DNA of 64,000 nucleotides from a virus (taxonomy: Duplodnaviria; Caudoviricetes): positions 32,001-96,000 of the IMG/VR virus record IMGVR_UViG_3300028833_000074. The stretch is one strand, 5' to 3'. Under the pieces are notes generated by a model. The model worked only from the letters and a program-made list of their open reading frames with translations. It searched no databases and was not told the origin of the DNA. Shown here piece after piece: positions 3,001-60,567 of this stretch; position 1 is the first letter of the stretch, and each line of letters starts with the position of its first letter. The translations under genes and the position numbers were made by a program.

Positions 3001-6000
3001 ATAATATTATCAAACAATCTAACTCTATCAATAATGGTTATGTAATTTTCTCATTAAACAACGAACGCATAGGCAAGGCATATGTCCAAGATGGCATTGC
3101 CGAATTGCCTACCTTCTTGTCTGCAAACGTATATTCATTAGGCGATGCTATCTTAAGCGCAAAATATATACCATCCGAATATTATTTTGCATCCGACAGC
3201 AACCAACATATCACCATTATTGATGATAATGAATACTGTTTTATGTCCACATTTGGTGACGACAACAACAATGGAACATTCAACGAACCCGTTCAAACGC
3301 TACAAAGAGCATGCGAATTAGACAAGAAAATTTTAATCAAAGATGGCATATACGAAGGCAATCACATTAGCATTGACAAGGAAACACACATTGAAGCATA
3401 TAATGATAATGTAACCTTTACAAACAATACTTTCATCAATAATGATGACTTATACATTACCGGCATTAATTTTAAAAATAACGATAATGTCATTTTTGAA
3501 AACCATGGCAGATTATATATCAATCAATGTATCTTCACAGACAATCAAGAGTATATTGTTGACAATAATGACGAAAGCATCACATCTATTGTTGATTCAG
3601 TTATCCTTGACAAAAATATAGTAACCGATTATAGCAAATTAAGCACAATGGAATATTGTTGGTTCGGAACAAACGAACCTAATGATAGCGAACAAGGTCC
3701 TATATTAGATGATTACACCATTAATAAGTATTATATTATGAGTGTAGAATCATCTAAAAACATTATTTATATAGGTTCTGTTGTGCGTTTGGTTGCAATG
3801 TTGCAAGATGTTTATGATAATGGCACGATATATCACAATAAAGAACGCCCATTGCCATTAAGAATTGCTTACTTTGAGACTGATGCCGGTTCACTTATGC
3901 CGCTTAAAGACTATACATATCACAAGCAAGCAACTACATTATTAAATACAAATGATAATCTTAACTCAAATAAAGTTATCTTAACAACACCAAAAAACAT
4001 CAACTATATCAATCAACCACTCAAATTGGAAATTTATGTCGATGAAGCAAATGGCTCACCAATACAAAATGGAACAATCACATTAAACATTAATGATGGC
4101 AACAAAACTATTGTACAACATCAAAAGGTCACCATTAATCATGGTATTGCTACATACATAAATGATTCAATTAACCTTACACAAGGTACATATAATTTAA
4201 CTTGTGTATATTATGACAATGCAACAACATATAAAGGTGCATATACTTTTGAAGTAAAGCGAGACGAAGTTCAATTTAATAATATTTACATAGATAATTA
4301 TGACCATATATATGAATTAACTTTTAACGCTGATGTAGTCACAAACTCTGGCAATATTGTCGAACAACAAGAAGTATATTGTTATATTGATGATGTCATG
4401 GCAACCAATACACTTACAAATCGTAATAAATTTATCATTAATAATGGCCAAGCATTATTTAACATGATATATAATGAGATACCAGCCGGTGTACATACCC
4501 TAACAATTACAAATGAAAATTGTTCATCCAGTTATGAAACCTTTAAATTTACAACTAAATTTACAGCATACGAAAAAGAAACAACAATACATTTTAATTA
4601 TAATGGCATTGAACAAAATGTACCAACTGATTTATTAATATCTGTTACCGATAACAATGCCAAAATTATTGATGGTGATATATCAATTTACATTAATGAT
4701 GAAATTGTTGAACAAGATAATCAAACTACATTTGCATTAAACAATGGCCAATATGTATTGCAAGATGTTCAATTAACACAAGGACAATATTCAATCGTAA
4801 TATATTATCATGGCGTAACAGATTATTATCAAGAATCTATTTTCGTTAAAAATGATTTTAACGTTGGTATACATGCTGTACACATTTCAAATGAAGGTCC
4901 AATAACAACATACATTGGTGACGAATATATTTTTGATTTTAACATACTTGATATTTACGATAATATTGTTGAAATCGGTATGGTAAATCTATATGTTAAT
5001 AATAACCTTATTAACGATACACCAATAAATATATCAGAAAATCATCATATCTCATATCCATTTGCAATATCATATTTATCTGCTGGCGTTCACAATTTAA
5101 CAGTTGAATATATTGATGATAGCAATGCATATTTGAATACCAATATATATTTAGATATGATTGTAAATAAAATCGATACTATCATTAGCATAGAACCGAT
5201 TGATAGTTATCCAAATGCTAATGTTAATGTCAATTATGATATTCATACCAATAGCAATAATATGGTTAATAGTGGAATTTTAATTGCTAAATTAGAAGAT
5301 AAAATTATTGGACAAGCACAAGTATCTGATATTATCAATCGTTATATTACATTAAATATACCTTTTAAGCCATCCGGCAATTATGATATTATATTTGAAT
5401 ATTATGATGCAGATAATAAATACGCTAATAATAGTATTACTGTACCTTTAATTATTAAAAATGGTAGCATTAATATTACTACTTCTCATGACAGTTATTA
5501 TCCAAATCAAGAGTTTCCTTTGGAAATTCGCATTACCGATGATAATGATGATGCTGTTAATTATGGATTTGTATCATTATATATTGATAATGTGCGAGAA
5601 TCAGACCCACTTCCAGTTAAATATGGTGAAGTTAGATATCCTTTATTATTAAAACAAATTCGAGATTATCCGATTACAATTGTATATGAAGGAAATGAAT
5701 ATTATCAAGAAACAACATATACACAAAACATTGCTGTAAACAATATACAAATTAGAGACATTAATATTGTTGAAGAATTAAAATCATTACCGGATACAAA
5801 ACATGATTATCATTTAACATTTACAACAATGGATGATTATAATGTTTATGATGGTATTATTGATTTTATATTTGATAGTGATGTAATACATAGTTATTAT
5901 ATACAAGAAAGCAATAAGGAATTTAATATTGCAATTCCAAATACATACATTGGTAATCATACACTTGAATTATTTTATCATGATTCAGAAATTTTCAGTA

Positions 6001-18505: not shown

Positions 18506-19308
18506 TGACTAATGACACAACAACTCTTCAAGGTAGCCTTGATGAAATGAAAGACCAGTTAATCTACGAATTAGGTGAAAAGGGAGTTACTACAAGTTAT
18601 GATTCTACTACTGGTTTGTTAGGTTTGATTAATAAGATTAGTGAGATTCAACAAGGGGGTGGTGGTCAAGAGATTGTTTCTTTTGATAATATCACAACAG
18701 AATTTAATTATACACAAAAAAGAGGGAATTATGGATTTAGTGTTAGTATTCCAAGTGGTGTTACAAGTTTAGGAAAAAATTGCTTTAATGGTTGTAGTGG
18801 TTTGACTAATGTTACTATCCCAAGTAGTGTTACAAGTATAGGAGATAGTTGTTTCCAAGGTTGTAGTAGTTTAACCAGTATTACTATTCCAAGTAGTGTT
18901 ACAAGTATAGGAGGTTTTTGTTTCTATAGTTGTAGTGGTTTGAATAGTATTACTATCCCAAATAGTGTTACAAGTATAGGGAATAGTTGTTTCTATAGTT
19001 GTAATGGTTTGAATAGTATTACTATCCCAAGTAGTATTACAAGTATAGGGAATAGTTGTTTCTATAGTTGTAAGGGTTTGAATAGTATTACTATCCCAAG
19101 TAGTGTTACAAGTATAGGAAGTAATTGTTTCAGAAATTGCACTAAACTTGTGGATTATCAATTATACTGGGAAACACCACCAGTAACTTGGTCTTCCAAC
19201 TTAATGCCAAATAACACAAACACATACTTCACTATACCTCAAGGAACAACTGCTAATTATGTAGCGAAAAGTTTCCCAAGTGGTAAACTTGTTGAAAGAA
19301 GTGGATAA
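18505..19308 (+). CDS. BspA/TpLRR-type leucine-rich repeat protein
   Basis: About six 23-aa repeats of I(T)IPSSVTSIGxxCFxxCxxL. Confidence 0.9.
   Translation: MTNDTTTLQGSLDEMKDQLIYELGEKGVTTSYDSTTGLLGLINKISEIQQGGGGQEIVSFDNITTEFNYTQKRGNYGFSVSIPSGVTSLGKNCFNGCSGLTNVTIPSSVTSIGDSCFQGCSSLTSITIPSSVTSIGGFCFYSCSGLNSITIPNSVTSIGNSCFYSCNGLNSITIPSSITSIGNSCFYSCKGLNSITIPSSVTSIGSNCFRNCTKLVDYQLYWETPPVTWSSNLMPNNTNTYFTIPQGTTANYVAKSFPSGKLVERSG
18745..19150 (+). repeat. 69-nt tandem repeats encoding the LRR units
   Basis: tactat(c/t)ccaa(g/a)tagt(g/a)ttacaagtatagg recurs every 69 nt. Confidence 0.9.
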
Positions 19309-20775: not shown

Positions 20776-21885
20776 GTGGATACTATGAAATCAACATTAA
20801 TTAAACAAGAAGCAAAAGAAATACAAGCATTCATTGAAAAAAACAAAGAATTGCCAAAAATCTGTACCATTAATGGTAATGAATACAGCATCTACAGCAC
20901 TTCTTACTTGATTGCAAAATTGCTTGACACCAAACAAAGTGACATCAAGCCGATAACTGTATCAGCACCATCAACAACAATCACGACAAAAATCAATGAA
21001 CAAGTCACATCCCCAGATTATAAGGATATGATTAAAAGATTTGTCCAATATGTTGAAGCCAACAAAAAGGTGCCGGCATACGTCACTACAGTCAAAAGCA
21101 AAACAAAAGTTGAATACAAATTATTTGTATATTGCATGTGTAAGATAATCAATTTTTACTATAAGAATTCTAATACCTTGCCATTGTATTGTGTATTTAA
21201 TGATGCGGATTTTAAAAAATCTGCAACCACTACAAAAACTACACAAAAAACAACAAAGACATCTACATCAGCAACAAAAAAAACAACAACAAAATCAAAA
21301 TGTAGCAACCCATACACATCATCACCACATTACACCTCAAATGGCTGTAATAAATTAGGACAATGCACCGGATGGTGGTGCGGTCCTCATTCCATTCACC
21401 AAGCAATACGCAAATTCGGTATCACAAAATATACCGAAAAACAAATTGCTGGATGGGCTGGTACCACAACTGCCGGAACTGGACATTCTGGCTTGAACAC
21501 AGCAATTGCAAAAATATCAAACATGAGCGGTAAAAAATTATCTGTACAATGGAAAAATTTCTCCGATATGGGTGCGAACAGCGCAGAACGTTTTGCTAAT
21601 ATCGCTAAATTAATTTGTAAAGACGATGTTGCAATTATCTGGCATATTGCATATATCAATGGGGGTAACAGTACAAGCGGCAAACACTTTGGACACTATG
21701 AATGCATTGACAAAATCAATACAGCAACCAAGTATGTAAGAGCGCTTAACTCATTAGGCGACAAAAAATCTGATGGCAGTTATGCTGGAAAACTACAAGA
21801 CAGACCATATGATGTTCAAGGATACTTTGCACGCAATACGCCAGGCGGACAGCCAGCATTATGTATCATTAAGGTGATAAAATGA
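20776..21885 (+). CDS. Pseudomurein endolysin (binding repeats + C39-like cysteine peptidase, PeiR-like); start probably ATG 20785
   Basis: N-terminal repeats (FIEKNKELPK, YVEANKKVPAYV), K/T linker, catalytic-type GQ..WCGPHS, GHY and LNSL motifs. Confidence 0.8.
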   Translation: MDTMKSTLIKQEAKEIQAFIEKNKELPKICTINGNEYSIYSTSYLIAKLLDTKQSDIKPITVSAPSTTITTKINEQVTSPDYKDMIKRFVQYVEANKKVPAYVTTVKSKTKVEYKLFVYCMCKIINFYYKNSNTLPLYCVFNDADFKKSATTTKTTQKTTKTSTSATKKTTTKSKCSNPYTSSPHYTSNGCNKLGQCTGWWCGPHSIHQAIRKFGITKYTEKQIAGWAGTTTAGTGHSGLNTAIAKISNMSGKKLSVQWKNFSDMGANSAERFANIAKLICKDDVAIIWHIAYINGGNSTSGKHFGHYECIDKINTATKYVRALNSLGDKKSDGSYAGKLQDRPYDVQGYFARNTPGGQPALCIIKVIK

Positions 21886-45150: not shown

Positions 45151-45174
45151 ATCAAAAACCTTTAAAAATTATCC

Positions 45175-45213
45175 AAAAAAAAATCCCCATTAAACATATA
45201 TTTAATGGGGATT
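45175..45213 (-). terminator. Hairpin + U-tract
   Basis: AATCCCCATTAAA-TATATG-TTTAATGGGGATT followed by a T run on the minus strand. Confidence 0.7.
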
Positions 45214-45287
45214 ATATTTAGTTATCAAGTTTGTCATGAGCCAAATGTTGAGAATAAAATATTCTACAATAATATATTTACAATCAT

Positions 45288-45634: not shown

Positions 45635-47656
45635 CTATTCGGTAAGTTTATGTCTATGACGCTGATTAAACTCTTCACGCTTGCCGGCATTGAATGTATT
45701 AATGCATAAATAATATCCGGTGATTCTGTCGAACAGTCTTAAATCTTTACTACCACAAATAGGACATACTTCAAGTTTATCATTAATTGTAAAACCACAC
45801 TCGGCGCAAAATGTAAAAACCTTACTATACGCCCAAAATATTGGATTACCAAATTCTAAAATACGTTGGTTTAATTTCCAAATGGCTTCTGCATCTGACC
45901 ATACTTCACCAGACCAAATATGAAGAATGTCACCACCAAGGGATAAGTGTGCAAATTTTCCAGCATTTTCAATATGCTTAATCCAATCCACACCACTTGA
46001 AACTGGGATATGATGGCTATTAGTAAGATAATAAGCGCCTTCCTTACCTTGAACCGGACATTGAGGATATTTTTCTCTATTTATTGTAGCAAATCTAAAA
46101 ACTGTAGATTCTGCTGGTGATGCAATCACACTCCAACGAAGACCATCTCTTTCAAAAAATTCTTGTTTTTTCTTGTTAATAAATTTAACAATTTGTACGC
46201 CCTCATCTTCGGCTTCAACAATATTTTTGCCAAATAATACTTCAAGACATTCATTTAAGCCAGCATATCCTAAAGTAATGGTTGTACGATTAATATCCCA
46301 GAGTGGCTCTTTTGTATCTTTATCGACTTGCAGTAAGAAATCTGATGTATGTTTATTATAGATAATATCTTTAACGACTTCTCTTCTATGTATTAAACTT
46401 TTGTAACAAATTTCACAAACATTATCTAATAATTCATAGAAATCATCGACATCACCATCAACTTCTAATGCCAATAAAGGAAGATTTATTGTGTTATACA
46501 TAAAATTACCAGTATTACAACAATCTTTGAAATAATCACCGGTATAATTCATAGGTAAAGAACTTCTGCAACCCATTGTGCTTCTTTCTAAATCAATACA
46601 ATTATTATAATAAATAGTTGGGTTATTCGCCCCAGTTTCATGGAGTATTTTGCAAGTTCCTTTATATTCATCCAAATCACCCTTACGAATGTTAAAGAGT
46701 ATATTTGGGAAACGATGATAAGCGTTTTGACCATCTTTATTGTTTGAAACTTCACAAACAGCCTTAAAGATTAGGTCTGCCTCTTCTTGATAGTCTTTAT
46801 ATGTTCCAATTGCAACTCCTTCAAAAGAAATTGCTGGCTCATCTGCTAAAACTGGTGGACAAGAAAGGTCTAATGCAATAGAAGAGAACAATACTTGGCC
46901 ACCACGACAAATAAGTGACATGTTACAGTTGAAAATGAATCCCTCAATTGCTTGTTTGATATCTCGGTAAGAGCGCCCCTTACAGAATGGTGATAATAAC
47001 GTATTGAAATTTACATAGCCTTGCCCCCCAGAAAAGACTGTAGCACCGGCCATCCATGCTTGAAGCATATGATTAAGTAATACTTCAAGAGATTTAGCCG
47101 GCTTTGCTACTGAACCCATTTCACCTTTACCATCTATTTTGAGTCCATTTTTAGCAAAAAATCTCAAATCATAGTTCATACAATTAGGTCTTGTCATATA
47201 GTACTCTAAATCATGAATGTGAATCAACCCTTCACGATGGGCTTCAGCACACTCTTCTGGCATCTTCAATAAAGCGTATTCCTTTGCTATAGAGTCGTAT
47301 GCATATTTGGCAATCATCTCTGGACTATAACCAATGTTAGCATTATCCTTACATCCATTTGCAATAAGGTCTTCAAACTCCTTAACACTCATACCAAGTT
47401 TACGATAGTGTTCTTCGGCTTCAAATTCTCTTTCTTGCAATAATTGTGATGATACTTCAGCACGAATTGCTGATGTAGAAATTTCAGCCATTCCATCTTT
47501 TTTTAATTTATAAAGTTTATTAGAAATTCTACGCTGAATTTTTTCGGCAAGTTTCTCATCAACATTAGTTTCGTCCATAATAGTCTGTGCAATCAAACGT
47601 GGTTTAAATTGCTCTTTACTTCCATCATTATGTATTACAATAATTTTTTCTGTCAT
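45635..47656 (-). CDS. nrdD: Anaerobic (class III) ribonucleoside-triphosphate reductase with ATP cone
   Basis: IHIHDL, PNC, SGGQ, MGCR, PAES, C-terminal CxxC..CPxC and RITGY glycyl-radical motif. Confidence 0.97.
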   Translation of the reverse strand: MTEKIIVIHNDGSKEQFKPRLIAQTIMDETNVDEKLAEKIQRRISNKLYKLKKDGMAEISTSAIRAEVSSQLLQEREFEAEEHYRKLGMSVKEFEDLIANGCKDNANIGYSPEMIAKYAYDSIAKEYALLKMPEECAEAHREGLIHIHDLEYYMTRPNCMNYDLRFFAKNGLKIDGKGEMGSVAKPAKSLEVLLNHMLQAWMAGATVFSGGQGYVNFNTLLSPFCKGRSYRDIKQAIEGFIFNCNMSLICRGGQVLFSSIALDLSCPPVLADEPAISFEGVAIGTYKDYQEEADLIFKAVCEVSNNKDGQNAYHRFPNILFNIRKGDLDEYKGTCKILHETGANNPTIYYNNCIDLERSTMGCRSSLPMNYTGDYFKDCCNTGNFMYNTINLPLLALEVDGDVDDFYELLDNVCEICYKSLIHRREVVKDIIYNKHTSDFLLQVDKDTKEPLWDINRTTITLGYAGLNECLEVLFGKNIVEAEDEGVQIVKFINKKKQEFFERDGLRWSVIASPAESTVFRFATINREKYPQCPVQGKEGAYYLTNSHHIPVSSGVDWIKHIENAGKFAHLSLGGDILHIWSGEVWSDAEAIWKLNQRILEFGNPIFWAYSKVFTFCAECGFTINDKLEVCPICGSKDLRLFDRITGYYLCINTFNAGKREEFNQRHRHKLTE

Positions 47657-47698
47657 GTTTTACAATCCTTTTTTATTCATTATGATGTATATTTTCTA

Positions 47699-47708
47699 TC
47701 ATATATAA
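47699..47708 (-). promoter_or_regulatory. TATA box upstream of nrdD
   Basis: TTTATATATG about 45 nt before the start. Confidence 0.7.
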
Positions 47709-47711
47709 AAA

Positions 47712-48362
47712 TCATATTCCATATACACCAACATTTAAACATAATTTGGTAAACATAATATCAAGTTCACTAATTTTTTTTTCAGAAATTTTACTTACAC
47801 GAATTATTTCTAATTTATTCATAATGTTATCTATATACACTTGTAATTTTATAATATAATTATCATCATCTTGCGTTAAATTCATTTCATCATCAATAAT
47901 TTTATAAATCTTATCAAAACTTTTAATTTCTACAAGCGTATTTTCAATTTCCTTATATTGAAAATCATTTGCACGTAATGATAAAATCATATTTTGTAAT
48001 TGACCAATGAATTTTTCAATAGGGGGATTGTCTATCACAAAAGAAATTATCTCATTAAACTCTTCGTTATCAGATGTAGCATTAATTAATAAATTATAAC
48101 ATGATGGTGAACCAATATTATAAATATAATATAAAATCACACCAAGTTCAATAAATATTACTTGATGTCCATCTATTTCCATTGTGATATCAGACTCTGG
48201 TTGCTTTACAAAAGATAAATAATTATTTAGCGAATTAATAAAAATACCATAAATATTATTATATTGCGTATAGCAACTTAAAACAACTACTTGCTTGTTA
48301 TCTTCAAAAGAATCAGCAATTAAACGTAATGTTTTATCATCAATAGGTTTATCTTCATTCAT
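47712..48362 (-). CDS. Hypothetical protein, possibly a degenerate nucleotidyltransferase-fold protein
   Basis: YGIFI...YLSF...EL...GSP..LL resembles YcgL/RlaP-type NTases but GS and DxD are missing. Confidence 0.35.
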   Translation of the reverse strand: MNEDKPIDDKTLRLIADSFEDNKQVVVLSCYTQYNNIYGIFINSLNNYLSFVKQPESDITMEIDGHQVIFIELGVILYYIYNIGSPSCYNLLINATSDNEEFNEIISFVIDNPPIEKFIGQLQNMILSLRANDFQYKEIENTLVEIKSFDKIYKIIDDEMNLTQDDDNYIIKLQVYIDNIMNKLEIIRVSKISEKKISELDIMFTKLCLNVGVYGI

Positions 48363-48864
48363 TATAATCCCCATCGTATTTTGTATCCACTCCTTGCGCT
48401 TGTAAATCAACTAATTGTGCAAATCTTGCACCTTTTTCAATGCAAAAATCTGTATTACGATGATTGATAATCAAAAAACTTAAATGTCCATCGAAACCAG
48501 CATCACCTAATGCTGTTTGTACAGACACGCCAGCACGCAACAAAGAAGAACGTGGCAAATAAAATTGCGCAGAGTCTGGAGCAATTTTAATTTTTTCTTT
48601 AGTAACCGCAATATAAGGTGTATTTGGTTGTAATGTATATACTTGCCTTAAACTACCTTTGACTTGTACAGTATTTGTATTAACATCGGTTTGTTGAGGT
48701 AAAACTTTAATATCTTTAAATAAACCATATATATGCATATTTGTATCTTCTATTGTTTTAATACAATCTAAAGTTAAATCAATACCAGTAGGTTGATATT
48801 GTTTATCATCCAGTCCATTATAACGTTCTCTTAAAATTAATTCACCATTAATCACTTGAATCAC
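48355..48864 (-). CDS. Trimeric dUTPase / dCTP deaminase family protein
   Basis: QPTGIDL, PRSSLLRAG, DAGFDG, GARFAQL, YDG.Y motifs. Confidence 0.9.
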   Translation of the reverse strand: MIQVINGELILRERYNGLDDKQYQPTGIDLTLDCIKTIEDTNMHIYGLFKDIKVLPQQTDVNTNTVQVKGSLRQVYTLQPNTPYIAVTKEKIKIAPDSAQFYLPRSSLLRAGVSVQTALGDAGFDGHLSFLIINHRNTDFCIEKGARFAQLVDLQAQGVDTKYDGDYNE

Positions 48865-49060
48865 CTAATTTTAATATTTTTCCTTGAGAAATATCCATAA
48901 AAATTTCAGTAGGTAATATTTCTCTCACTTCATAATTTTGTTTTATTGCTTTATCAATATCATCAACACTAATAATACCTATAAACTCATCATGTTCATA
49001 GATTAACAAAAAATTTTTCCACAACTCCCATACACTAATTCCTAATAAATCTTTATACAT
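48848..49060 (-). CDS. Hypothetical protein
   Basis: GGAGG RBS, coupled to both neighbours. Confidence 0.55.
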   Translation of the reverse strand: MYKDLLGISVWELWKNFLLIYEHDEFIGIISVDDIDKAIKQNYEVREILPTEIFMDISQGKILKLGDSSD

Positions 49061-49712
49061 TTTCTTCCTCCGCAACACGTTTGAAATTTGCGTAAACATC
49101 TTTAGCAAACACAATTGATGTTTTCTTTAAGGCCATCAAATGTAATCTTTTCTTATTATATGTTGGATTTTTATATTTATATTGCGTTTTATAATAACGA
49201 TATAATTCTGCAAACTCATCATCGTTTGCAATTAATTTACTCGTACATCGTATGATTGCTTTTTTTAAATCTTCACAGTAATCAATAGGGTCTTGTTTTT
49301 TATTGGCAACAATCTGCCCCCTACTGTATTTCTTAATTTTAGAATAATAATTTTTATTTCTTACAACTGGAGATAAACCAGCATATGATAAAAAATGCTT
49401 ACGATTTTGAAAACGCTGAATGTCACCTATCTCGACAATAAGTTCGGCAGCATCATATAAATTAATATAAGGTACTTTGCGTAAAAAACTCATATATTCT
49501 TCTGAAAAAAATAAAATATTTTGTATTTCATCTCTTAACATTTGCAAAGGACTATCAAAAGGTAATATACTAATATTTTCAAGCCTATTATATCTTGATG
49601 ATGATATATCACCAAAACTTATTAAACGATGTTTATTACTCTTTTGTGCATTAAAAACAGTTTTATTCGTGTTAAATAATATTGATAAAACTTTACGCTC
49701 ACTTGAATCCAT
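49053..49712 (-). CDS. IS110/Nop-domain protein lacking the RuvC domain (TasA-like)
   Basis: VPYINLYDAAELIVEIGDIQRFQNRKHFLSYAGLSP matches the IS116/IS110/IS902 (Transposase_20) motif; C-terminal LY..YK..Y...HLMALKK; no DEDD domain and no catalytic SG loop. Confidence 0.75.
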   Translation of the reverse strand: MDSSERKVLSILFNTNKTVFNAQKSNKHRLISFGDISSSRYNRLENISILPFDSPLQMLRDEIQNILFFSEEYMSFLRKVPYINLYDAAELIVEIGDIQRFQNRKHFLSYAGLSPVVRNKNYYSKIKKYSRGQIVANKKQDPIDYCEDLKKAIIRCTSKLIANDDEFAELYRYYKTQYKYKNPTYNKKRLHLMALKKTSIVFAKDVYANFKRVAEEENV

Positions 49713-49716
49713 TGTT

Positions 49717-50343
49717 TCACATCCTTAAAATATTATTTTTGGCTTTTTTAGATAAACGTGGTATTTTATCTAATTCATCTTCAGTTGCTGTTAATACTTT
49801 GCTTGGTTTTTTAAAATTTTTCAATAATGTGCGAGCAGTTTGTTTTCCTACACCATCAATACCAATTAAAACATTAATAAAAGCATTGGAATCTTTTTTT
49901 CTTACAATAGGATATTCTAATGGTTCTGTAGATTTATCAATATTATTAATAATTGATGAAATGCAAGAAACAAATTGTTTAAAGTTACTTGCAACAAATA
50001 CTGGGGTTTTATAACGAATCATCAACGACGCAATATTTCCAAATTTTTCATTATTTGTTTGTTGTGTCACATATTGTTCGTTCATTTTAAAATCATCATA
50101 AATAATAATAAATGAAAAAGGCGTTAATTCTTTCATTTGCAAAGCCTCTTTCTGAATTTGTCTATTTCGACAAGATGTGATAAAATCTTGAATTGTTTTC
50201 GTCTCAATTAATATATCTTTTTTACCTTCTTGTAAAATTGCAATATCACCAGAAATTAAACGTTCTACTTTCAAATCTGGAAAATAATTACGTAATTTTG
50301 CAATACGTTCATCATCTTCTCTATCATCAACAAGAATATGCAT
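49717..50343 (-). CDS. ERCC4/XPF (Hef-like) structure-specific nuclease with HhH
   Basis: VDDRE, GDI, IETKT..DF and IDGVG..TA HhH motifs. Confidence 0.9.
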   Translation of the reverse strand: MHILVDDREDDERIAKLRNYFPDLKVERLISGDIAILQEGKKDILIETKTIQDFITSCRNRQIQKEALQMKELTPFSFIIIYDDFKMNEQYVTQQTNNEKFGNIASLMIRYKTPVFVASNFKQFVSCISSIINNIDKSTEPLEYPIVRKKDSNAFINVLIGIDGVGKQTARTLLKNFKKPSKVLTATEDELDKIPRLSKKAKNNILRM

Positions 50344-50351
50344 ATAATCAC

Positions 50352-51281
50352 CTATAAATATAAATTAGCGCCACAACAATCAGATGAATTACAAATACCA
50401 TTACACTTTTGTGATTCACAACTTGAAAACAATATATCTTCTCTACCAAATAGATAGGAAACTTGATGTTCTTCTTCTACACAATGTTGAAATTTTTCAT
50501 CAGATAAATGATTTCGCAAAATCTCAACAACTTCTTCTTCAGTATATCCATCATCACGTAAATATATAATTAATTCACGACGCTCATGATATCCTAAATT
50601 TGCATTAGATAGAAGATAATCAATACAAGGTGGAAACTTGGCACTAAAATGAATATCATTCAATATAACTTCGTGTTTAGTTGTGATAATATCTTCATCC
50701 AATGGCAACAAAGAAACATAATCTTGACCGATAATATAATCGGCATGTCCATTGTATGATTTTGCCATTTGACAAATGTCTTCGTAAGATAATTCACATA
50801 ATTGATGATATTCAATTGGTATGCAATATAAACCAGTTTTTAAATTTTTAGTGCCAAGTATACGAGAAACTCTACGAGTATCTCCAACAACAGATGGGTC
50901 CGAATATGTGTTGGTTCTCCGATGTAAATTTTTTACCCACTTTTTTATCGCCAATTTAGGTTGTTTTAATTGTTCGTTATGAGTTAAAATAAAAATATGA
51001 AAGCCTCGACCACTAAAACGAATATAAAATTTTACACCCAAATCGTAAAGATAAAACGCAACCTTACGTACATCATCATAGAACTTTAAATCTGTATCAT
51101 AATCAAAATCAAGAAAAATTTTATCAATATAAGCATTTGGTGCTATTGGTTCTCCAACATAAGAATATACAGATTGATAAATATTTTTTTTTCCATTATA
51201 TAATGCAATAAATTTATCAATATCAGCATCATCTGTAATTGTTATTCTTATTTTGGGAATAAAAATTTCTTTAACCATCAT
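50352..51281 (-). CDS. Archaeo-eukaryotic primase, PriS fused to a PriL-like C-terminal domain
   Basis: FLDFD, FSGRGFH, D..V.DTRRVSR motifs; C-terminal FPPCI..HERR..SC...C..C. Confidence 0.85.
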   Translation of the reverse strand: MMVKEIFIPKIRITITDDADIDKFIALYNGKKNIYQSVYSYVGEPIAPNAYIDKIFLDFDYDTDLKFYDDVRKVAFYLYDLGVKFYIRFSGRGFHIFILTHNEQLKQPKLAIKKWVKNLHRRTNTYSDPSVVGDTRRVSRILGTKNLKTGLYCIPIEYHQLCELSYEDICQMAKSYNGHADYIIGQDYVSLLPLDEDIITTKHEVILNDIHFSAKFPPCIDYLLSNANLGYHERRELIIYLRDDGYTEEEVVEILRNHLSDEKFQHCVEEEHQVSYLFGREDILFSSCESQKCNGICNSSDCCGANLYL

Positions 51282-51667
51282 TCTAACATCTCGATATAAT
51301 GTTCAAATTCATTGTCTAAAACCATTTCGGCTAATTTAATCGCAAATTGACATCCGGGGTCAAGCATTAGGCCACTATTATAATCAATCACATAAAATGG
51401 CCATTCGGTACATGCATCGAATCTCGTTTCATATTCATTACATGTTTTACCATTAAAATATTGACAATCAATTGTGCGACAACAATCACCACATTGCTTA
51501 CAAAATTCTGGATGTTCTTGCACCATATTATATGTGAAATAAGAATCTGGTGCTTGTAATAAAACTGTTTCAATAATATCTGCTACCATTTCATCCCCTA
51601 TATTAGGATATTTAAGTGTGTATTTGTCTAACATTTTTTTTATAAATTTTAAATGATTAATAGGCAT
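51278..51667 (-). CDS. YkgJ-family CxxCxxCC metal-cluster protein
   Basis: CKQCGDCC, CQYF, C..YETR..C..WPF. Confidence 0.85.
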   Translation of the reverse strand: MPINHLKFIKKMLDKYTLKYPNIGDEMVADIIETVLLQAPDSYFTYNMVQEHPEFCKQCGDCCRTIDCQYFNGKTCNEYETRFDACTEWPFYVIDYNSGLMLDPGCQFAIKLAEMVLDNEFEHYIEMLE

Positions 51668-52383
51668 TAAAAACCACCTTCTTCTTCACACACTTCTTTA
51701 TAAGCACAATAATCACATAAGAATTGCCTTTCTGCATAAAAATTTTCTTCTTTAATTTCTTCTCGAATAAAGTTTAATAATTCAATAGTGGCTTCTTCAT
51801 CTGCATGCGTAACAAAAGAACCCTTCTCTTGTGATTCGCAAAAATTAACGAATTTCATGCCACCATCTTTAGTGAATACAATGCCAGCAGATATAACCTT
51901 TTTGTTAGGAAATTCTTTTTCAACTAATAATTTATAATAAGTCAATTCTAACCGATAATTTTTAATAGGTTTACTTTTACCGGTTTTATAATCAATAATG
52001 ATTAAATCGCCAAACTCATCTTCTAAAATTAAATCACATAATCCAGAAAAATTAATATCTTCATTATATAAATATTCCTCTGCACTAAATACTGTATATG
52101 TTTCTTTTTCATCATGAAAAACTTCATCATAAAAACGTGCTAAATTAAATAAATGTGTTTTAAGATTAAATTTAGAACCACTTTCATTATATATTTTTAT
52201 TAATTGTTCATAAAAATCTCCATCTATATCGATATTTTTAATAAATGTTTCCGCAATATTATGTACATCAGTACCTAATTGCATAAATTCATTAGGTTGT
52301 TGTTTAAGTTTATCTATATACATATATTTAAATTCTCTACGACATTTTAAAAAACTATTGACAGCACTTTTACTTAACTTCAT
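51667..52383 (-). CDS. PD-(D/E)XK Cas4/RecB-like exonuclease
   Basis: S.S....CRR, GTDVH, G.CDLI, IIDYKTG, CDYCAYKEVC. Confidence 0.9.
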   Translation of the reverse strand: MKLSKSAVNSFLKCRREFKYMYIDKLKQQPNEFMQLGTDVHNIAETFIKNIDIDGDFYEQLIKIYNESGSKFNLKTHLFNLARFYDEVFHDEKETYTVFSAEEYLYNEDINFSGLCDLILEDEFGDLIIIDYKTGKSKPIKNYRLELTYYKLLVEKEFPNKKVISAGIVFTKDGGMKFVNFCESQEKGSFVTHADEEATIELLNFIREEIKEENFYAERQFLCDYCAYKEVCEEEGGF

Positions 52384-52838
52384 AATATCTCTCCCTCTTC
52401 ATCAATTAATTCCCATACAATCTCTGCCGATATCCAATCTTCAAAATAACCTAAATTAATATAATGACTATGATAATACAATCTAAAAGGTTTATTGCGC
52501 TTTTGATTGATATGACTAATGTATTTAATTTTAGATGTATCCCATAAATCATATTTACGCAAGCCACCATCAGAATTATACTGATAATCACCACCCTTGG
52601 TAAAATTATATTCTGGTGAATATAAATCAATATAATATCGTTCTTTGTCATTCAATTCCGAAACAGCACATTCACATTCAACACGTAATTGATATCGAAT
52701 GGGGTCATCTTGTATTAATATATCAATTGGTTGACGCCCATGTGCATGATTTCTGTGTCTTTTATAAATATTACGACTTTGCCCAATATACAAAACCTTC
52801 ATTGTTTTTATATCAACATACGAATATATACCAATCAT
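52380..52838 (-). CDS. GIY-YIG homing-type endonuclease
   Basis: GIY..YIGQS..R..H, E..YI, YNFTKGG. Confidence 0.9.
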   Translation of the reverse strand: MIGIYSYVDIKTMKVLYIGQSRNIYKRHRNHAHGRQPIDILIQDDPIRYQLRVECECAVSELNDKERYYIDLYSPEYNFTKGGDYQYNSDGGLRKYDLWDTSKIKYISHINQKRNKPFRLYYHSHYINLGYFEDWISAEIVWELIDEEGEIL

Positions 52839-52872
52839 TCAATAACTTTAAAAAATCAATATGGGATTTTAT

Positions 52873-53592
52873 TTATATTCTTATTTGTCTAACATTATTT
52901 ATAAATGTTTCACTATCATTTGTTTGATACTCAACAAACATTCCAGTCATGATATCTCTTGGAATATCATTATAAGCATTTTGACAAGTAATATAATTTT
53001 TTACATTTTCTGGAGTACGCAATGACAAGCGTAAACATTTAGTACCCTTTTTAGATGTAAAATATGTTGCTTGTTTCACTAAAGCAATATCATTGTCGTA
53101 TTCATATGGATTGGCTTCGGTAATAGTTTCTTCAGCAATACCATTAATATAATTTGCTTCTAATACAAAACTATCATCTACACTAAAGTCAATCATGAAA
53201 TGCATATACAATCGCCCACCATATGAATGACAATTAATGATAATAACATGCCCAGTTTCAAAATATTTACCATAACGATGCACCAAAACCTCGCTACAAG
53301 AAACACTTTGATTTACATCCTTATTTTGAATATGCAAAATGGTGTATCCTTTTTTATTATCAACATCAATAATAATGCCCTTGACATATAACTCTTCTGT
53401 GTCATCTTCAATATCATTAAGGTCAGTAAGCAAATCATCATAAGGTGTTTCGATATTATCAATATATTCTTCCCTAATTGAAAAAGATAATGCAGAAAAT
53501 TCTTTAGCAAGAACATCTTTTTTAGAGTAATATTGATTTTCATTTTTAAAATAATTAATTAAGTCTGTCCTTTTTTTAATAATATCTTCCAT
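52873..53592 (-). CDS. OB-fold protein, probably the C-terminal part of the split DnaE
   Basis: KEFSALSFS (cf. EKE.LG.Y.S) then VKGIIIDVDNKKG OB strand; directly follows the polymerase core. Confidence 0.6.
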   Translation of the reverse strand: MEDIIKKRTDLINYFKNENQYYSKKDVLAKEFSALSFSIREEYIDNIETPYDDLLTDLNDIEDDTEELYVKGIIIDVDNKKGYTILHIQNKDVNQSVSCSEVLVHRYGKYFETGHVIIINCHSYGGRLYMHFMIDFSVDDSFVLEANYINGIAEETITEANPYEYDNDIALVKQATYFTSKKGTKCLRLSLRTPENVKNYITCQNAYNDIPRDIMTGMFVEYQTNDSETFINNVRQIRI

Positions 53593-53596
53593 AATA

Positions 53597-55387
53597 TCAC
53601 ATCAATGTTGTTTGTTTGTATTGATTTTCATGAACGATTGGGATATCATCAAAAGCACCAGCCCATATTAATGATTCTCTAACTCTTTTGTTACATGCAC
53701 GTGGAGCAATACGTAAACAAAAGTCTTCAAATGATAAAAATTTACCCTTTTTACGTTCTCGTAAGATTGCTTGAGATATTTTATTAGATACATTAGCAAC
53801 CAAATTTAAGCCCATATAAATTTTATTATCAGCAATAATTGTATTTGCTTCACTAATATTAATATTTGGTCCACATAATTCCGCATCACTTTCTTTTATC
53901 ATATTTAAAATCTCTACACGTTTTTCTTCTTCTTTAGTATTTTGGAGCATTGCAATTGCAAATTCCAAAGGATAATAAGTTTTCAACCATGCAGATTGAT
54001 AAGACACAGCAGAATATGAATAACAATGTGCTTTGTTGAAAGAATATTCAGAAGCATTTTCAATATCTGACCACAATTTCTCTGCCACTTCTTTTTGAAC
54101 ATTATTATCTATACAACCTTGTATAAATTTAGGTTTATATAAGTCAAAGGCTTCTTTTTTCTTTTTGGATACTGCTCTACGTAAATTATCTGTGTCAAGG
54201 TCAGACATACCGGCAAGTTGATTAGCCACTTGCATAATATTTTCTTGATATATCATAAGACCGAATGTATCACCAAGAATATCTTGTAAACGTGGGTCTG
54301 CATATGTAACTTCTTTCCTACCAAATTTATAATCACAATAAAGGTCTAAATAACCACTATTTCTTGCTCCGGGCCTAATAAGTGCAATAACATCCATTAA
54401 TTCGTTAAAATTATCTGGATGTATTTGCTTTGTACCAGATATACCAGCACCTTGTTCTAATTGAAAAATACCCATTGTATTACGATTGATTGTTTCAAAA
54501 ACTTTTGGGTCATCAAAATCATAAGGCAAATGAACATCATCATCAATTAATTCTAAAGTGTCCTTATGAATATCTAATACTGCCACACCAAGACAGTCAT
54601 TCTTTAGAAAACCCATCGCTTCACATTCACTACCATCATTAGAGATAACATCCTTACCAGTTACTGATATAGTTGAACAATAATTATCAATATCACCATC
54701 AAGAATTATCATACCACCGGCATGCACCCCATATGATTTAGTCAAACCGACAAGGTCATCAATATAATCTCTAACTTCAGTATGTTCATTTAAAAAATCC
54801 ATAACTTTAACATTATCATGATAATCTTCATTAGGTGCTAAATAAGATGTAACCTTGTTAACAACTTGAAAGTCAATACCTTGTCTTGCTGATAAATCCT
54901 TGATTAGCATTTTAGGTGTAAATTTTAATTTTGTTATCATTTGCCCAGTACATTCTTCACCATATATATCACGAATATATTGTAAGGCTTCATCTCTTTG
55001 TGATGAAGCAAAATCTGAATCTATATCCGGTAATGATGTCATTACTCTTGTTTTATTTAGAAAACGAGAAAATGATAATCCAAAGCCTTTGGGTGGAAGT
55101 TTAGTAATGTTTAATGCATAACAAACCACACTACCTACTGCAGAACCCCTACCGGCACTTCTAATAATACCTTTATCATCCAAGTAAGCAAGAATATAAG
55201 CAGTATTTAAAAAAAAGTTTTCCAAACCACAATCAAATATTACATTCAATTCATATTCTAATTGTGATTGGTACCATTCATCATCGCCAACACCTTTAAT
55301 GCGTAAACCACGTTGGCACATTTGTTTGATAAAATTTTTGTTATCTTCTTCAAAATCAAAAAAAGTTTGTTGCGCATCTCTTATCAT
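53597..55387 (-). CDS. dnaE: DNA polymerase III alpha (family C) catalytic core
   Basis: GRGSAVGS, PDIDSDF, HAGG, KNDCLG, GIFQLE, ALIRPG, YQE, YSFNKAH, AGAFD. Confidence 0.95.
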   Translation of the reverse strand: MIRDAQQTFFDFEEDNKNFIKQMCQRGLRIKGVGDDEWYQSQLEYELNVIFDCGLENFFLNTAYILAYLDDKGIIRSAGRGSAVGSVVCYALNITKLPPKGFGLSFSRFLNKTRVMTSLPDIDSDFASSQRDEALQYIRDIYGEECTGQMITKLKFTPKMLIKDLSARQGIDFQVVNKVTSYLAPNEDYHDNVKVMDFLNEHTEVRDYIDDLVGLTKSYGVHAGGMIILDGDIDNYCSTISVTGKDVISNDGSECEAMGFLKNDCLGVAVLDIHKDTLELIDDDVHLPYDFDDPKVFETINRNTMGIFQLEQGAGISGTKQIHPDNFNELMDVIALIRPGARNSGYLDLYCDYKFGRKEVTYADPRLQDILGDTFGLMIYQENIMQVANQLAGMSDLDTDNLRRAVSKKKKEAFDLYKPKFIQGCIDNNVQKEVAEKLWSDIENASEYSFNKAHCYSYSAVSYQSAWLKTYYPLEFAIAMLQNTKEEEKRVEILNMIKESDAELCGPNINISEANTIIADNKIYMGLNLVANVSNKISQAILRERKKGKFLSFEDFCLRIAPRACNKRVRESLIWAGAFDDIPIVHENQYKQTTLM

Positions 55388-55396
55388 ACTATCCCC

Positions 55397-56335
55397 CTAA
55401 TAAATTTTATTGCAAAATATTTTTTTAAATTTTTTATGTTGAGTAAAATTTGGAATAATTCTTTCATATTCTGGCATCTCAAAATAGCATTTTTCTGCAA
55501 TTTTATGTGTATTGTCAATGCAAGTTTGTATCAACTTGTCATCTTCTAATCCACTTTGATGCGCAAATTGATATGAATAGTCACTATTGCCTAAAATATT
55601 ACTAATTAATGTTTCGTTAATTTCGCTCTCTGGCTTTTTCCAATTGATAGATTGTATTTTCCTTCTTAATTTTCTGTCTTCATCCAATAGGACATGACTA
55701 TCAAAGGTATTAATAATGTATTTTGCATCTGTATCTTCATATAATTCTACCAATTTATTGTTTAAATAATTTTGAACCGGCAATCCAGTTTTATCATCAA
55801 TGTATGTTGGGTGATATTGCAATTCAACTGCAACATTGTCTTTTCCAAAGTAATCTAATAATTTATTGAAAAAATCATATGCTATATCATCTTTTTGATT
55901 TAAAAAGCATTGATTGATGTAAGAAAGTGAGCAAGCAGTTGATACAAAAATGCCTTCTGGATTGGTATTAAATAAAACTGGATGTGGCAATAAAGGTTTG
56001 TAATAAAAATGCTGTTTAACTGATAATCTTTGCATTTTTCTAATACTTTTAGCACCTCGCTCATTCATAGCCAACAAGACTAAATGATATCGTGTTTGAC
56101 CTTGTGGCTTACCCATCATAGTTTTACAATAAAATTCATTTCCAAACAATGGTTTAACATTGGTATCTTTACATGCTTCCTTTAGGGCATACCAATTCGC
56201 AAGACTACCATGGTCTGTAACTGCTACATATTCTTGCTCATAAATTTGAATTTGATTAATTAATTCTGGCACTTTAATGACAGAATCACCTACAGATGCA
56301 TCAGTATGTAAATGTAAATTTACGAAATTATCCAT
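55397..56335 (-). CDS. Stand-alone PHP domain of DNA polymerase III alpha
   Basis: HLHTD.S..D, TDHG, GNE, HLVLLA, TAC, ELQ.H, DSH metal ligands intact. Confidence 0.92.
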   Translation of the reverse strand: MDNFVNLHLHTDASVGDSVIKVPELINQIQIYEQEYVAVTDHGSLANWYALKEACKDTNVKPLFGNEFYCKTMMGKPQGQTRYHLVLLAMNERGAKSIRKMQRLSVKQHFYYKPLLPHPVLFNTNPEGIFVSTACSLSYINQCFLNQKDDIAYDFFNKLLDYFGKDNVAVELQYHPTYIDDKTGLPVQNYLNNKLVELYEDTDAKYIINTFDSHVLLDEDRKLRRKIQSINWKKPESEINETLISNILGNSDYSYQFAHQSGLEDDKLIQTCIDNTHKIAEKCYFEMPEYERIIPNFTQHKKFKKIFCNKIY

Positions 56336-60086: not shown

Positions 60087-60100
60087 ATAGGTGGTGTTAA

Positions 60101-60177
60101 TTTTACTTCTTAACCCAAGAAGACTTTTTATGACTCTTATATACGAATGTGGGGGTAAAAATATATAAGTCTTGTCA
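60101..60177 (-). ncRNA. Structured RNA motif, copy 1
   Basis: TGACAAGA-CTTATATA[loop]TATATAAG-AGTCA-TAAAAAGT-CTTCTT[loop]AAGAAG-TAAAA. Confidence 0.65.
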
Positions 60178-60198
60178 GTAGGACGATATTATGAGTCT

Positions 60199-60270
60199 TT
60201 TTACTTCTCTACTTCAGAAGACTTTTAACGACTCTTATAGTAAAACATAAAAAAACTATAAGTCTTGTCA
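60199..60270 (-). ncRNA. Structured RNA motif, copy 2
   Basis: TGACAAGA-CTTATAG[loop]CTATAAG-AGTCG-TTAAAAGT-CTTCT[loop]AGAAG-TAAAA; compensatory change relative to copy 1. Confidence 0.65.
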
Positions 60271-60310
60271 AGGAGTTAAAAAATTACAATTTGCAATGAA
60301 GTGAAAATTT

Positions 60311-60400
60311 ATAAGCCCCGATTACATAATCCCAAAAAATTAAATCATGATAACTTATTATTATATCCTTTCGGATAACGAGGCTTATTATATCATGATT
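60311..60400 (-). ncRNA. Candidate pseudoknotted RNA with a GAAA tetraloop
   Basis: Interleaved 10-bp stems AATCATGATA/TATCATGATT and ATAAGCCTCG/CGGGGCTTAT; TATCC-GAAA-GGATA. Confidence 0.5.
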
Positions 60401-60403
60401 AAG

Positions 60404-60475
60404 TCAGTATAAGTGGATTTGCACCACTATCTCCCACCACGTGTATTGGGTGTTTTACTATTAAACTATATACTG
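60404..60475 (-). ncRNA. tRNA-like cloverleaf with a non-canonical anticodon arm
   Basis: CAGTATA/TATACTG acceptor, GTTT/AAAC D stem, AGTGG-TGCAAAT-CCACT T arm; CCCA-ATACACGTGG-TGGG has no 7-nt loop or U33. Confidence 0.75.
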
Positions 60476-60476
60476 A

Positions 60477-60567
60477 TTATGTCGAATGGGGAAAGGAAAT
60501 GATTTAATGATTAGTACACCTAACAATTGTGCATAGTAAACGAAGGTAAAAAACCCATTCGACATAA
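60477..60567 (-). ncRNA. Candidate RNA: 14-bp closing stem with a large internal loop
   Basis: Perfect TTATGTCGAATGGG/CCCATTCGACATAA; inner TGCAC/GTGTA hairpin. Confidence 0.55.

Follow-up and report, generated by a model that had tools for sequence, protein, structure and literature searches.

What does a protein with the C-terminal domain of an IS110 transposase, and no detectable nuclease domain, contribute to a virus that keeps its gene among the genes for DNA replication? The question is raised by a stretch of 64,000 nucleotides (nt) from a tailed virus, referred to here as the window, which covers positions 32001-96000 of the 152,284-bp virus record IMGVR_UViG_3300028833_000074 (IMG/VR; rated 100% complete); coordinates are those of the window unless stated otherwise. 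An intact open reading frame (ORF) with an ATG start (49053..49712, minus strand) encodes a 219-amino-acid (aa) solo Nop-domain protein of TasA architecture, which we refer to as the Tas-like protein. The original prediction, made from the sequence alone, took it for a domesticated IS110 protein and a candidate RNA-guided system. Judged by sequence, the protein belongs to a deep clade of its own, which groups with array-associated Tas proteins, and it is probably a Tas-family variant that has no array, sits in a replication module, and partners an ERCC4 nuclease. The description of TIGR-Tas systems dates from 2025 (Faure et al. 2025, PMC12045711), and the natural role of nuclease-less TasA proteins is still being worked out.

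Family Membership

The gene is present as a single copy in the 152,284-bp genome. It encodes the motif AAELIVEIGDIQRF...SYAGLSP, and aa 77-119 of its product match Pfam PF02371 (Transposase_20) with an E value of 2.5e-8 and 34.6 bits, above the cutoff of 21.3 bits, which bears out the claim of an intact gene carrying the C-terminal motif of IS110. No match was found to the DEDD/RuvC-like domain of IS110 (PF01548), and the IS110 consensus "r.SGss" that follows AGL.P, the catalytic Ser loop, has no counterpart in the viral family; both absences had been predicted. With a 4-nt 5' junction and an overlapping ORF at the 3' junction, there is likewise no room for insertion sequence (IS) ends.

Homologs occur in more than 86 clusters (48-100% identity), are uniformly 188-232 aa long, and in several cases lie on contigs of 140-155 kb. 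In an exhaustive search, the next-nearest relatives were also short (190-260 aa), and full-length IS110 proteins appeared only from about E 5e-4. The Tas model NF052498 (TIGR_Tas_endo) matched the Tas-like protein with E 1e-10 and 42 bits over aa 73-209 (model positions 69-213 of 215), and all 56 members of the family alignment (A1, used as a profile) matched it over almost the full length of the model. Against the IS110 model NF033542 (cutoff, 140 bits) the protein scored 35 bits, over aa 58-118 only, compared with 100-217 bits for true IS110 proteins, and deep members of the viral family matched the Tas model only. The family profile matched the TasR chain of 9MTY, the TaTasR-tigRNA-DNA complex (Faure et al. 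2025, PMC12045711), with E 5e-16 over positions 26-210, and matched IS621 with E 0.035 in the N-terminal half only. The TasR match required the profile, as a phmmer search of the PDB with the single protein returned no match. In the other direction, the family hidden Markov model (HMM) picked up ten ORFs beside genuine dual-repeat arrays, with E values down to 1e-25.

A tree of Nop domains separated IS110 from a group made up of Tas and the viral family (support, 96/95); within that group the viral family formed its own clade (90/97) and array-associated Tas another (87/91). The proposed check for nesting among intact IS110 transposases therefore found none, and because the gene is not nested in IS110 in this tree of IS110 and dual-repeat Tas, both a recent truncation and a domesticated IS110 are rejected as its origin. 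Genes of this clade are currently misannotated as IS110 or "transposase 20" proteins.

Predicted Structure

An AlphaFold (AF2) model of the protein (predicted local distance difference test score [pLDDT], 88.7; predicted template modeling score [pTM], 0.81) begins with an antiparallel coiled coil at codons 3-68 (49509..49706, minus strand), made of helices 3-32 and 38-68 with pLDDT >90, where the alignment with TasR starts at residue 2. The N terminus had been described as short and helical; it is helical, but it amounts to a full antiparallel Nop coiled coil. The remainder is a C-terminal Nop/Transposase_20 domain at codons 71-218 (49059..49502, minus strand), to which the PF02371, NF052498, and TasR profile matches refer and which is without the C-terminal Y/H processing extension. 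Inserted in this domain is a Lys-rich beta-hairpin at codons 116-146 (49275..49367, minus strand; strands 116-135, pLDDT 50-70). It lies where TasR has its wedge loop, aligns with "VDNGKVQKRKKG" of TasR in the profile match, and is deleted in a short subfamily of 190-194 aa (P0093, P0099, P0108).

TasR was the top Foldseek match of the model (E 1.8e-6), and VIA-align superposed model residues 2-218 on TasR 9MTY with a Z score of 19.2 (191 residues; root mean square deviation, 3.0). TasH followed with 16.8 and the IS110-type ISCro4 with 15.0, against a coiled-coil background of about 9, while Nop5 (1NT2) reached 8.3 over 147 residues, inside the coiled-coil/helical background. A fibrillarin-binding N-terminal domain was not found, with 0 residues ahead of the coiled coil in the model. 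This comparison agrees with the predicted nuclease-less, TasA-type nature of the protein: as modeled, the whole of it is one solo Nop-type domain. The coiled coil of TasR serves as a dimerization and duplex-docking element (PMC12045711), and by analogy the Tas-like protein may homodimerize through its own.

In a column comparison, the C-terminal helices show the Tas pattern (P183, A194, F202, and an aromatic residue at 207), and Arg29 of the coiled coil is conserved, in common with Tas and with the IS110 consensus "nri." The chain stops with its last helix (0 residues beyond), whereas nine array-associated dual-repeat Tas proteins continue for 16-40 residues, in a C-terminal extension that holds the Y/H tigRNA-processing loop (Xu et al. 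2026, 10.64898/2026.09.09.750476).

Conservation and Selection

The ratio of nonsynonymous to synonymous substitution rates (dN/dS) of the Tas-like gene was 0.08 in comparison with a relative at 87% identity and 0.14 in comparison with one at 73%, near the values for the genes for PolIII-alpha (0.07) and NrdD (0.05), and at the larger of the two distances the Tas-like protein is the best conserved of the module. Its dS is not depressed, which gives no indication of an RNA within the gene. Gene order is kept in 15 loci, all those with enough flank, and also in relatives at 24-39% identity and in the isolate PhiF1. ORF53 of PhiF1 (MK994522), annotated as a "transposase 20 superfamily-like protein," is a family member by its match to the family HMM (E 7.6e-11). 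It was reached only through its ERCC4 neighbor and the HMM; in tblastn searches with the Tas-like protein or its homolog P0096, no deposited phage was matched.

The checks of synteny and dN/dS called for with the prediction thus place the gene in all related viruses examined, under strong purifying selection (0.08-0.14). Wherever it was examined, the Tas-like clade belongs to the fixed core of the replication module in DnaE-encoding tailed viruses of Methanobacteriales. One of these, PhiF1 of Methanothermobacter, is culturable, and direct experimental testing is therefore practical.

Genomic Pairing with an ERCC4 Nuclease Gene

Directly upstream, at 49717..50343 on the minus strand, lies a translationally coupled gene for an ERCC4 nuclease with an (HhH)2 domain, of the short archaeal XPF type (PF02732, HHH_5), which resembles Aeropyrum XPF (2BGW/2BHN) and keeps the catalytic D/E/K/D positions. 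The prediction had the Tas-like gene tightly coupled between the ERCC4 and dUTPase genes. On the ERCC4 side this stands, as 4 nt separate the ERCC4 stop codon from the Tas-like ATG and an AGGATG motif lies within the final ERCC4 codons. On the dUTPase side it does not, as a 188-nt stretch containing a small ORF intervenes. That ORF (48848..49060, minus strand; ~70 aa from an ATG at 49060) is variable, and its start overlaps the Tas-like stop. A 67-aa homolog is called in the closest relative (L018) and none in L019, it is missing from the remaining relatives, and its dN/dS is 0.45. The 188-nt stretch was rejected as an RNA locus (fold z, -0.30, not significant).

An ERCC4/XPF gene stands directly upstream of the Tas-like gene, on the same strand, in all 22 of the loci with upstream sequence (~18 of them independent), down to ~24% identity, and this is the strongest contextual signal for the link to ERCC4 that had been proposed. 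The suggested link to a Cas4-like nuclease received no specific support; two genes always lie between. The gap between the paired genes is 0-7 nt in 15 of the 22 loci, and in most others it holds one small ORF with a helix-turn-helix (HTH), which fills it in the deepest lineages. The product is ~68-86 aa long, with G-R-x-x-G after the HTH; in PhiF1 (L142, MK994522) its gene lies at 4128-4343, between ERCC4 and Tas-like genes, and is unannotated. Other deep relatives have it in the same gap (L011, 5740-6000; L013, 5752-6000; L020, 9736-9996; L021, 559-765), and no counterpart was found in the genome of the window. Insertions flank the pair on either side but never lie inside it in the close family. 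Smaller Methanobacteriales viruses (Drs3, vir249) have ERCC4 without a Tas-like gene, and the converse was never seen in the sample. Weak evidence for the pairing also comes from RNA-library contigs in two runs of one study, which span the ERCC4/Tas junction amid even coverage of the module but may derive from DNA.

Search for Guide RNAs

The search used array features from Faure et al. 2025 and Xu et al. 2026: a dual-repeat type with box C-N9-box D at a ~36-nt period and a stem-loop type with units of stem, CNA-N9-YG, loop, CNA-N9-YG, and stem. TIGRFinder criteria were reimplemented, and genuine dual-repeat arrays, pulled from the viral collection by their CCA-N9-UG-N4 periodicity, served as positive controls. 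The dual-repeat detectors recovered arrays in 10/10 true TIGR-Tas loci, all at most ~450 nt from tas. Periodic k-mer and motif-agnostic chain scans found no dual-repeat array in the 152-kb genome, in 20 related loci, or in PhiF1. The stem-loop scan, which had no positive control for that type, returned one canonical unit genome-wide, where chance predicts ~1; PhiF1 and most relatives yielded none, and a motif-agnostic stem-loop scan of the genome found no enriched box pair. The earlier observation that no TIGR array is adjacent to the gene therefore extends to the whole 152-kb genome, with the difference in controls just given.

The single canonical unit (51483-51514, plus strand; a 9-bp stem, CAA-N9-TG twice, and a 4-nt loop) lies 1.8 kb from the Tas-like gene. 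It was rejected as a tigRNA, being antisense in Cys codons of a Cys-rich ORF and a by-product of those codons, with a fold z of -0.83. It is kept only in the closest (87%) relative, where it shows a compensatory G-C to C-G stem swap composed of two synonymous changes; boxes and stem are gone in every other relative. A scan of the virus for box C/D small RNAs (sRNAs) gave two matches, each with 2 substitutions and both in sense-strand runs of Asp codons in genes.

Guides supplied in trans had been suggested from 45.2 kb and from 60.1-60.6 kb, and neither candidate survived. The first is an intrinsic terminator downstream of NrdD (45174..45214, minus strand), a hairpin with a 22-nt inverted repeat (86% complementary) followed by T9. 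The second is a tRNA island bounded by two tRNA-Thr genes, whose hairpins are without dual-spacer or box anatomy and without targets. Two related ~95-nt units there (60095-60278, minus strand, and 60477-60567) have a 9-10-bp stem, a variable 15-18-nt loop, and a second small hairpin. The loops are too short for dual spacers; nothing complementary to the GC-rich loop was found in the genome, and for the AT-rich loop there was a single 13-nt match, as expected by chance.

Several other elements were noted in the island. A perfect 14-bp inverted repeat, with 63 nt between its halves, adjoins the ~95-nt units, and RNA libraries contain an exact 174-nt contig (60134-60307) and a higher-depth contig over 60107-61000; contigs from these libraries are incapable of showing small RNAs. 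Between the tRNA-Thr genes, at 60395-60470 (minus strand), lies a tRNA-like element not called by ARAGORN or Rfam, in which CAGTATA...TATACTG forms a 7-nt stem like that of an acceptor arm and GGTGCAAATCCAC resembles a T arm.

Three further groups of repeats were set aside. About 15 intergenic elements at genome positions 134-147 kb (window coordinates 102-115 kb, outside the window) are tRNA-like rather than tigRNAs, with an acceptor stem and a canonical T arm. They are 125-160 nt long and are followed by a hairpin, ATATAAT, and a ribosome-binding site, and one subtype has a conserved AC(G/A)ATGACT loop. Repeats at 3.6-5.5 kb of PhiF1 are perfect 13-nt iterons without spacers; their three clusters (MK994522 3621-3748, 4842-4926, and 5470-5543; AGTATTACTGAGG and variants) are largely ORF free and have the look of a replication origin. 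Finally, a 69-bp tandem repeat at 18738-19131 is part of a BspA-type leucine-rich-repeat gene. Guidance of the Tas-like protein by RNA is possible but unsupported, and the guide, if any, is probably not a TIGR array.

Proposed Role and Alternative Explanations

On balance we lean toward the view that the Tas-like protein is a TasA-type solo Nop protein, of a deep clade grouping with Tas, that acts as the noncatalytic partner of the ERCC4 nuclease in viral replication or recombination. It would form a coiled-coil homodimer, as TasR does, would bind structured or hybrid nucleic acid on its Nop surface, and would select substrates for the ERCC4 nuclease among viral replication and recombination intermediates. 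Such a unit of nuclease plus Nop domain would parallel TasR (RuvC), TasH (HNH), and IS110 (DEDD), with the nuclease here a separate, coupled gene. The absent array, the polymerase-like conservation, and the coupling to XPF argue for a role in replication or recombination and not in inter-element conflict; the partnership with ERCC4 and the type of nucleic acid bound are what we infer.

A number of observations weigh against this view. The 42 bits of the window protein on NF052498 fall below the 100-bit cutoff and below the scores of genuine Tas proteins (81-214 bits for nine array-adjacent ones, six of them above 100). The viral family as a whole scores 38-82 bits, with a maximum of 82 and every member under the cutoff, which marks it as a more divergent group. 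The tree sampled dual-repeat Tas and IS110, without stem-loop-clade Tas and Nop5, and the nearest Tas clade is thus not fixed by it. The Gly hairpin of Tas and IS110 (GxGP/PGIG) is replaced in the viral family by a near-invariant I-Y-D, so that nucleic acid binding may differ from that of Tas. In the nuclease, the ERK signature (aa 47-49) is ETK here and E-(T/V/I/L)-K in the close family, although deep relatives keep ERK, and its activity may therefore be altered. A fused ERCC4-Nop protein was not found, in a search that was weak for longer forms, and adjacency to ERCC4 in a conserved operon can reflect coexpression alone.

A stronger version of the proposal, which we consider unlikely, is a two-gene, arrayless Tas system in which the Nop dimer would load a nonarray RNA and direct the separate XPF/ERCC4 nuclease to replicating viral DNA. 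The RNA might be, for example, a transcript of the virus, a primer, the RNA of an R-loop, or a single-copy structured RNA. Were it true, RuvC, HNH, and DEDD would be joined by ERCC4 as a fourth nuclease partner of a Nop domain, the first to act in trans, and archaeal viruses would be using an RNA-guided module for a core function of replication instead of for defense or mobility.

It is also doubtful, although the architecture and the Tas-like C-terminal domain would suit it, that the protein is an ordinary TIGR-TasA, an RNA-guided DNA binder or repressor whose tigRNAs, probably of the stem-loop type, are encoded at another site in the genome or have unrecognized boxes. Tas proteins that bind stem-loop guides typically have no C-terminal Y/H loop either (Xu et al. 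10.64898/2026.09.09.750476), published counts of 6,685 arrays against 20,096 tas loci and flexible array positions make an overlooked guide locus conceivable, and a canonical stem-loop unit with a compensatory change in the closest relative does lie 1.8 kb away, at 51483-51514, in a scan without a positive control. That unit, however, is antisense in Cys codons and keeps its boxes and stem in the closest relative only, and the stem-loop count equals the ~1 expected, with no enriched box pair. The complete genome is without a dual-repeat array by detectors that found 10/10 true ones, related loci and the complete PhiF1 genome have no arrays either, and the undepressed dS indicates no intragenic RNA. 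A deeply vertical core gene of a replication module is, moreover, unlike the known TIGR loci, which are accessory.

The protein might instead be a guide-independent architectural binder or bender of DNA in the replication module, acting for example at the origin or on concatemers, with the Nop fold kept, RNA use lost, and no dependence on ERCC4. TasR bends DNA by 180 degrees (PMC12045711), the change of the Gly hairpin to I-Y-D and the short subfamily without the wedge insertion would fit such a function, as would the failure to find a guide, and the small HTH neighbor in deep relatives could provide sequence recognition. We nonetheless think this rather improbable, as it leaves the invariant adjacency to ERCC4 unexplained and sits poorly with the conservation of Arg29 and of the Tas-type, RNA-contacting C-terminal helices.

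A viral mimic of Nop5 that binds host box C/D sRNAs or L7Ae-bound kink-turns, and so subverts rRNA or tRNA modification, is highly improbable. Its appeal lies in an archaeal host with box C/D machinery and in a Nop domain common to Nop5 (Z, 8.3 over 147 residues), but that score is inside the coiled-coil background and Tas and IS110 are far closer (Z, 15-19). No fibrillarin-binding N-terminal domain was found, the genomic context is replication and not RNA metabolism, and the virus yielded no box C/D-like matches other than Asp-codon artifacts.

A decaying, functionless IS110 remnant left by recent truncation, which the PF02371 match and database names such as "IS110 family transposase" and "transposase 20 superfamily-like" (PhiF1) might suggest, can be dismissed as already refuted: the gene is not nested in IS110 in the tree, there is no room for IS ends, dN/dS is 0.08-0.14, length is uniform in >86 clusters, and synteny is fixed down to 24% identity.

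Comparison with Known Systems

The closest likeness among described proteins is to TasA (Faure et al. 2025, PMC12045711; Xu et al. 2026, bioRxiv 10.64898/2026.09.09.750476), which is also a nuclease-less, virus-encoded solo Nop protein of ~220 aa with Tas-type C-terminal helices; the absence of a C-terminal Y/H processing loop is shared with stem-loop-binding Tas. The viral clade differs in that no array was found in the complete genome or its relatives, in its separate position in the tree, in its scores below the NF052498 cutoff (42 bits for the window protein against 81-214), and in its I-Y-D in place of the Gly hairpin. Its gene is vertically inherited, paired with ERCC4, and part of a core replication module, whereas TIGR loci are accessory. 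TasR (9MTY) and TasH (9W04, 21KL) are nearest to it over the Nop part in structure and sequence (Z, 19.2 and 16.8; TasR profile E, 5e-16) and likewise combine a nuclease with a Nop domain, but here the nuclease is of the ERCC4/XPF superfamily and a separate polypeptide, in a partnership suggested by gene order, and no tigRNA was found.

An arrayless branch of compact TasR proteins has been reported from dense viral genomes, with an alternative guide source left open (Xu et al. 2026, 10.64898/2026.09.09.750476). The Tas-like protein resembles that branch as a Tas-family protein in a dense viral genome with no detectable array, but those proteins have RuvC and no coiled coil, and the viral protein has a coiled coil and no nuclease domain. 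With IS110 recombinases (IS621, 8WT6; ISCro4, 9T56) it shares the coiled coil plus Transposase_20 and the RF...YAGL.P motif; unlike them, it is without DEDD, a Ser-Gly loop, or a noncoding flank for a bridge RNA, and its gene is a single copy in a fixed position in 22 loci. ORF53 of Methanobacterium virus PhiF1 (MK994522) belongs to the same family and the same module, although it is very divergent, a small HTH ORF lies between ERCC4 and ORF53, and the host is a thermophile. Neither Faure et al. 2025 nor Xu et al. 2026 mentions Tas genes linked to ERCC4/XPF or located in replication modules. The occurrence of the clade in archaeal viruses bears on the evolutionary link proposed among TasA, IS110, and the Nop5 of archaeal-eukaryotic box C/D systems.

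Replication Module and Host

The replication module occupies 45635..56335 on the minus strand and comprises genes for PHP, PolIII-alpha, ORF239, GIY-YIG, PD-(D/E)XK, the Cys-rich ORF, primase, ERCC4, the Tas-like protein, the small ORF, dUTPase, ORF232, and NrdD. The order common to relatives is PHP, PolIII-alpha, ORF239, PD-(D/E)XK, Cys-rich ORF, primase, ERCC4, Tas-like, dUTPase, and NrdD, and that of PhiF1 is DnaE, PD-(D/E)XK, ORF55, ERCC4, ORF53, and NrdD. The module is a hotspot for variable insertions between the conserved genes (L003, L005-L008, and L019-L021 compared with window 50343-53600), which include DNA methylases, GIY-YIG/NUMOD homing endonucleases, and thymidylate synthase, and the NrdD of L021 carries an intein.

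The assignment to a methanogen virus is supported by two genes of the window, one for an archaeal histone and one for a protein with a pseudomurein-binding repeat, and by ERCC4 homologs that were found only in Methanobacteriales viruses. The Bacilli and Clostridia labels of metagenome-assembled genomes (MAGs) that hold relatives conflict with this evidence and were rejected as a clue to the host; they probably reflect misbinned viral contigs. L017 (JAGAIU010000011.1, 146,781 bp) and the contig of protein P0026 are methanogen-virus contigs of whole-virus size deposited as a "Clostridia bacterium" or "Bacilli bacterium" MAG. The BspA-type leucine-rich-repeat gene, with its tandem repeat at 18738-19131, neighbors the gene for the pseudomurein-binding repeat protein, at 20776-21885, both on the plus strand.

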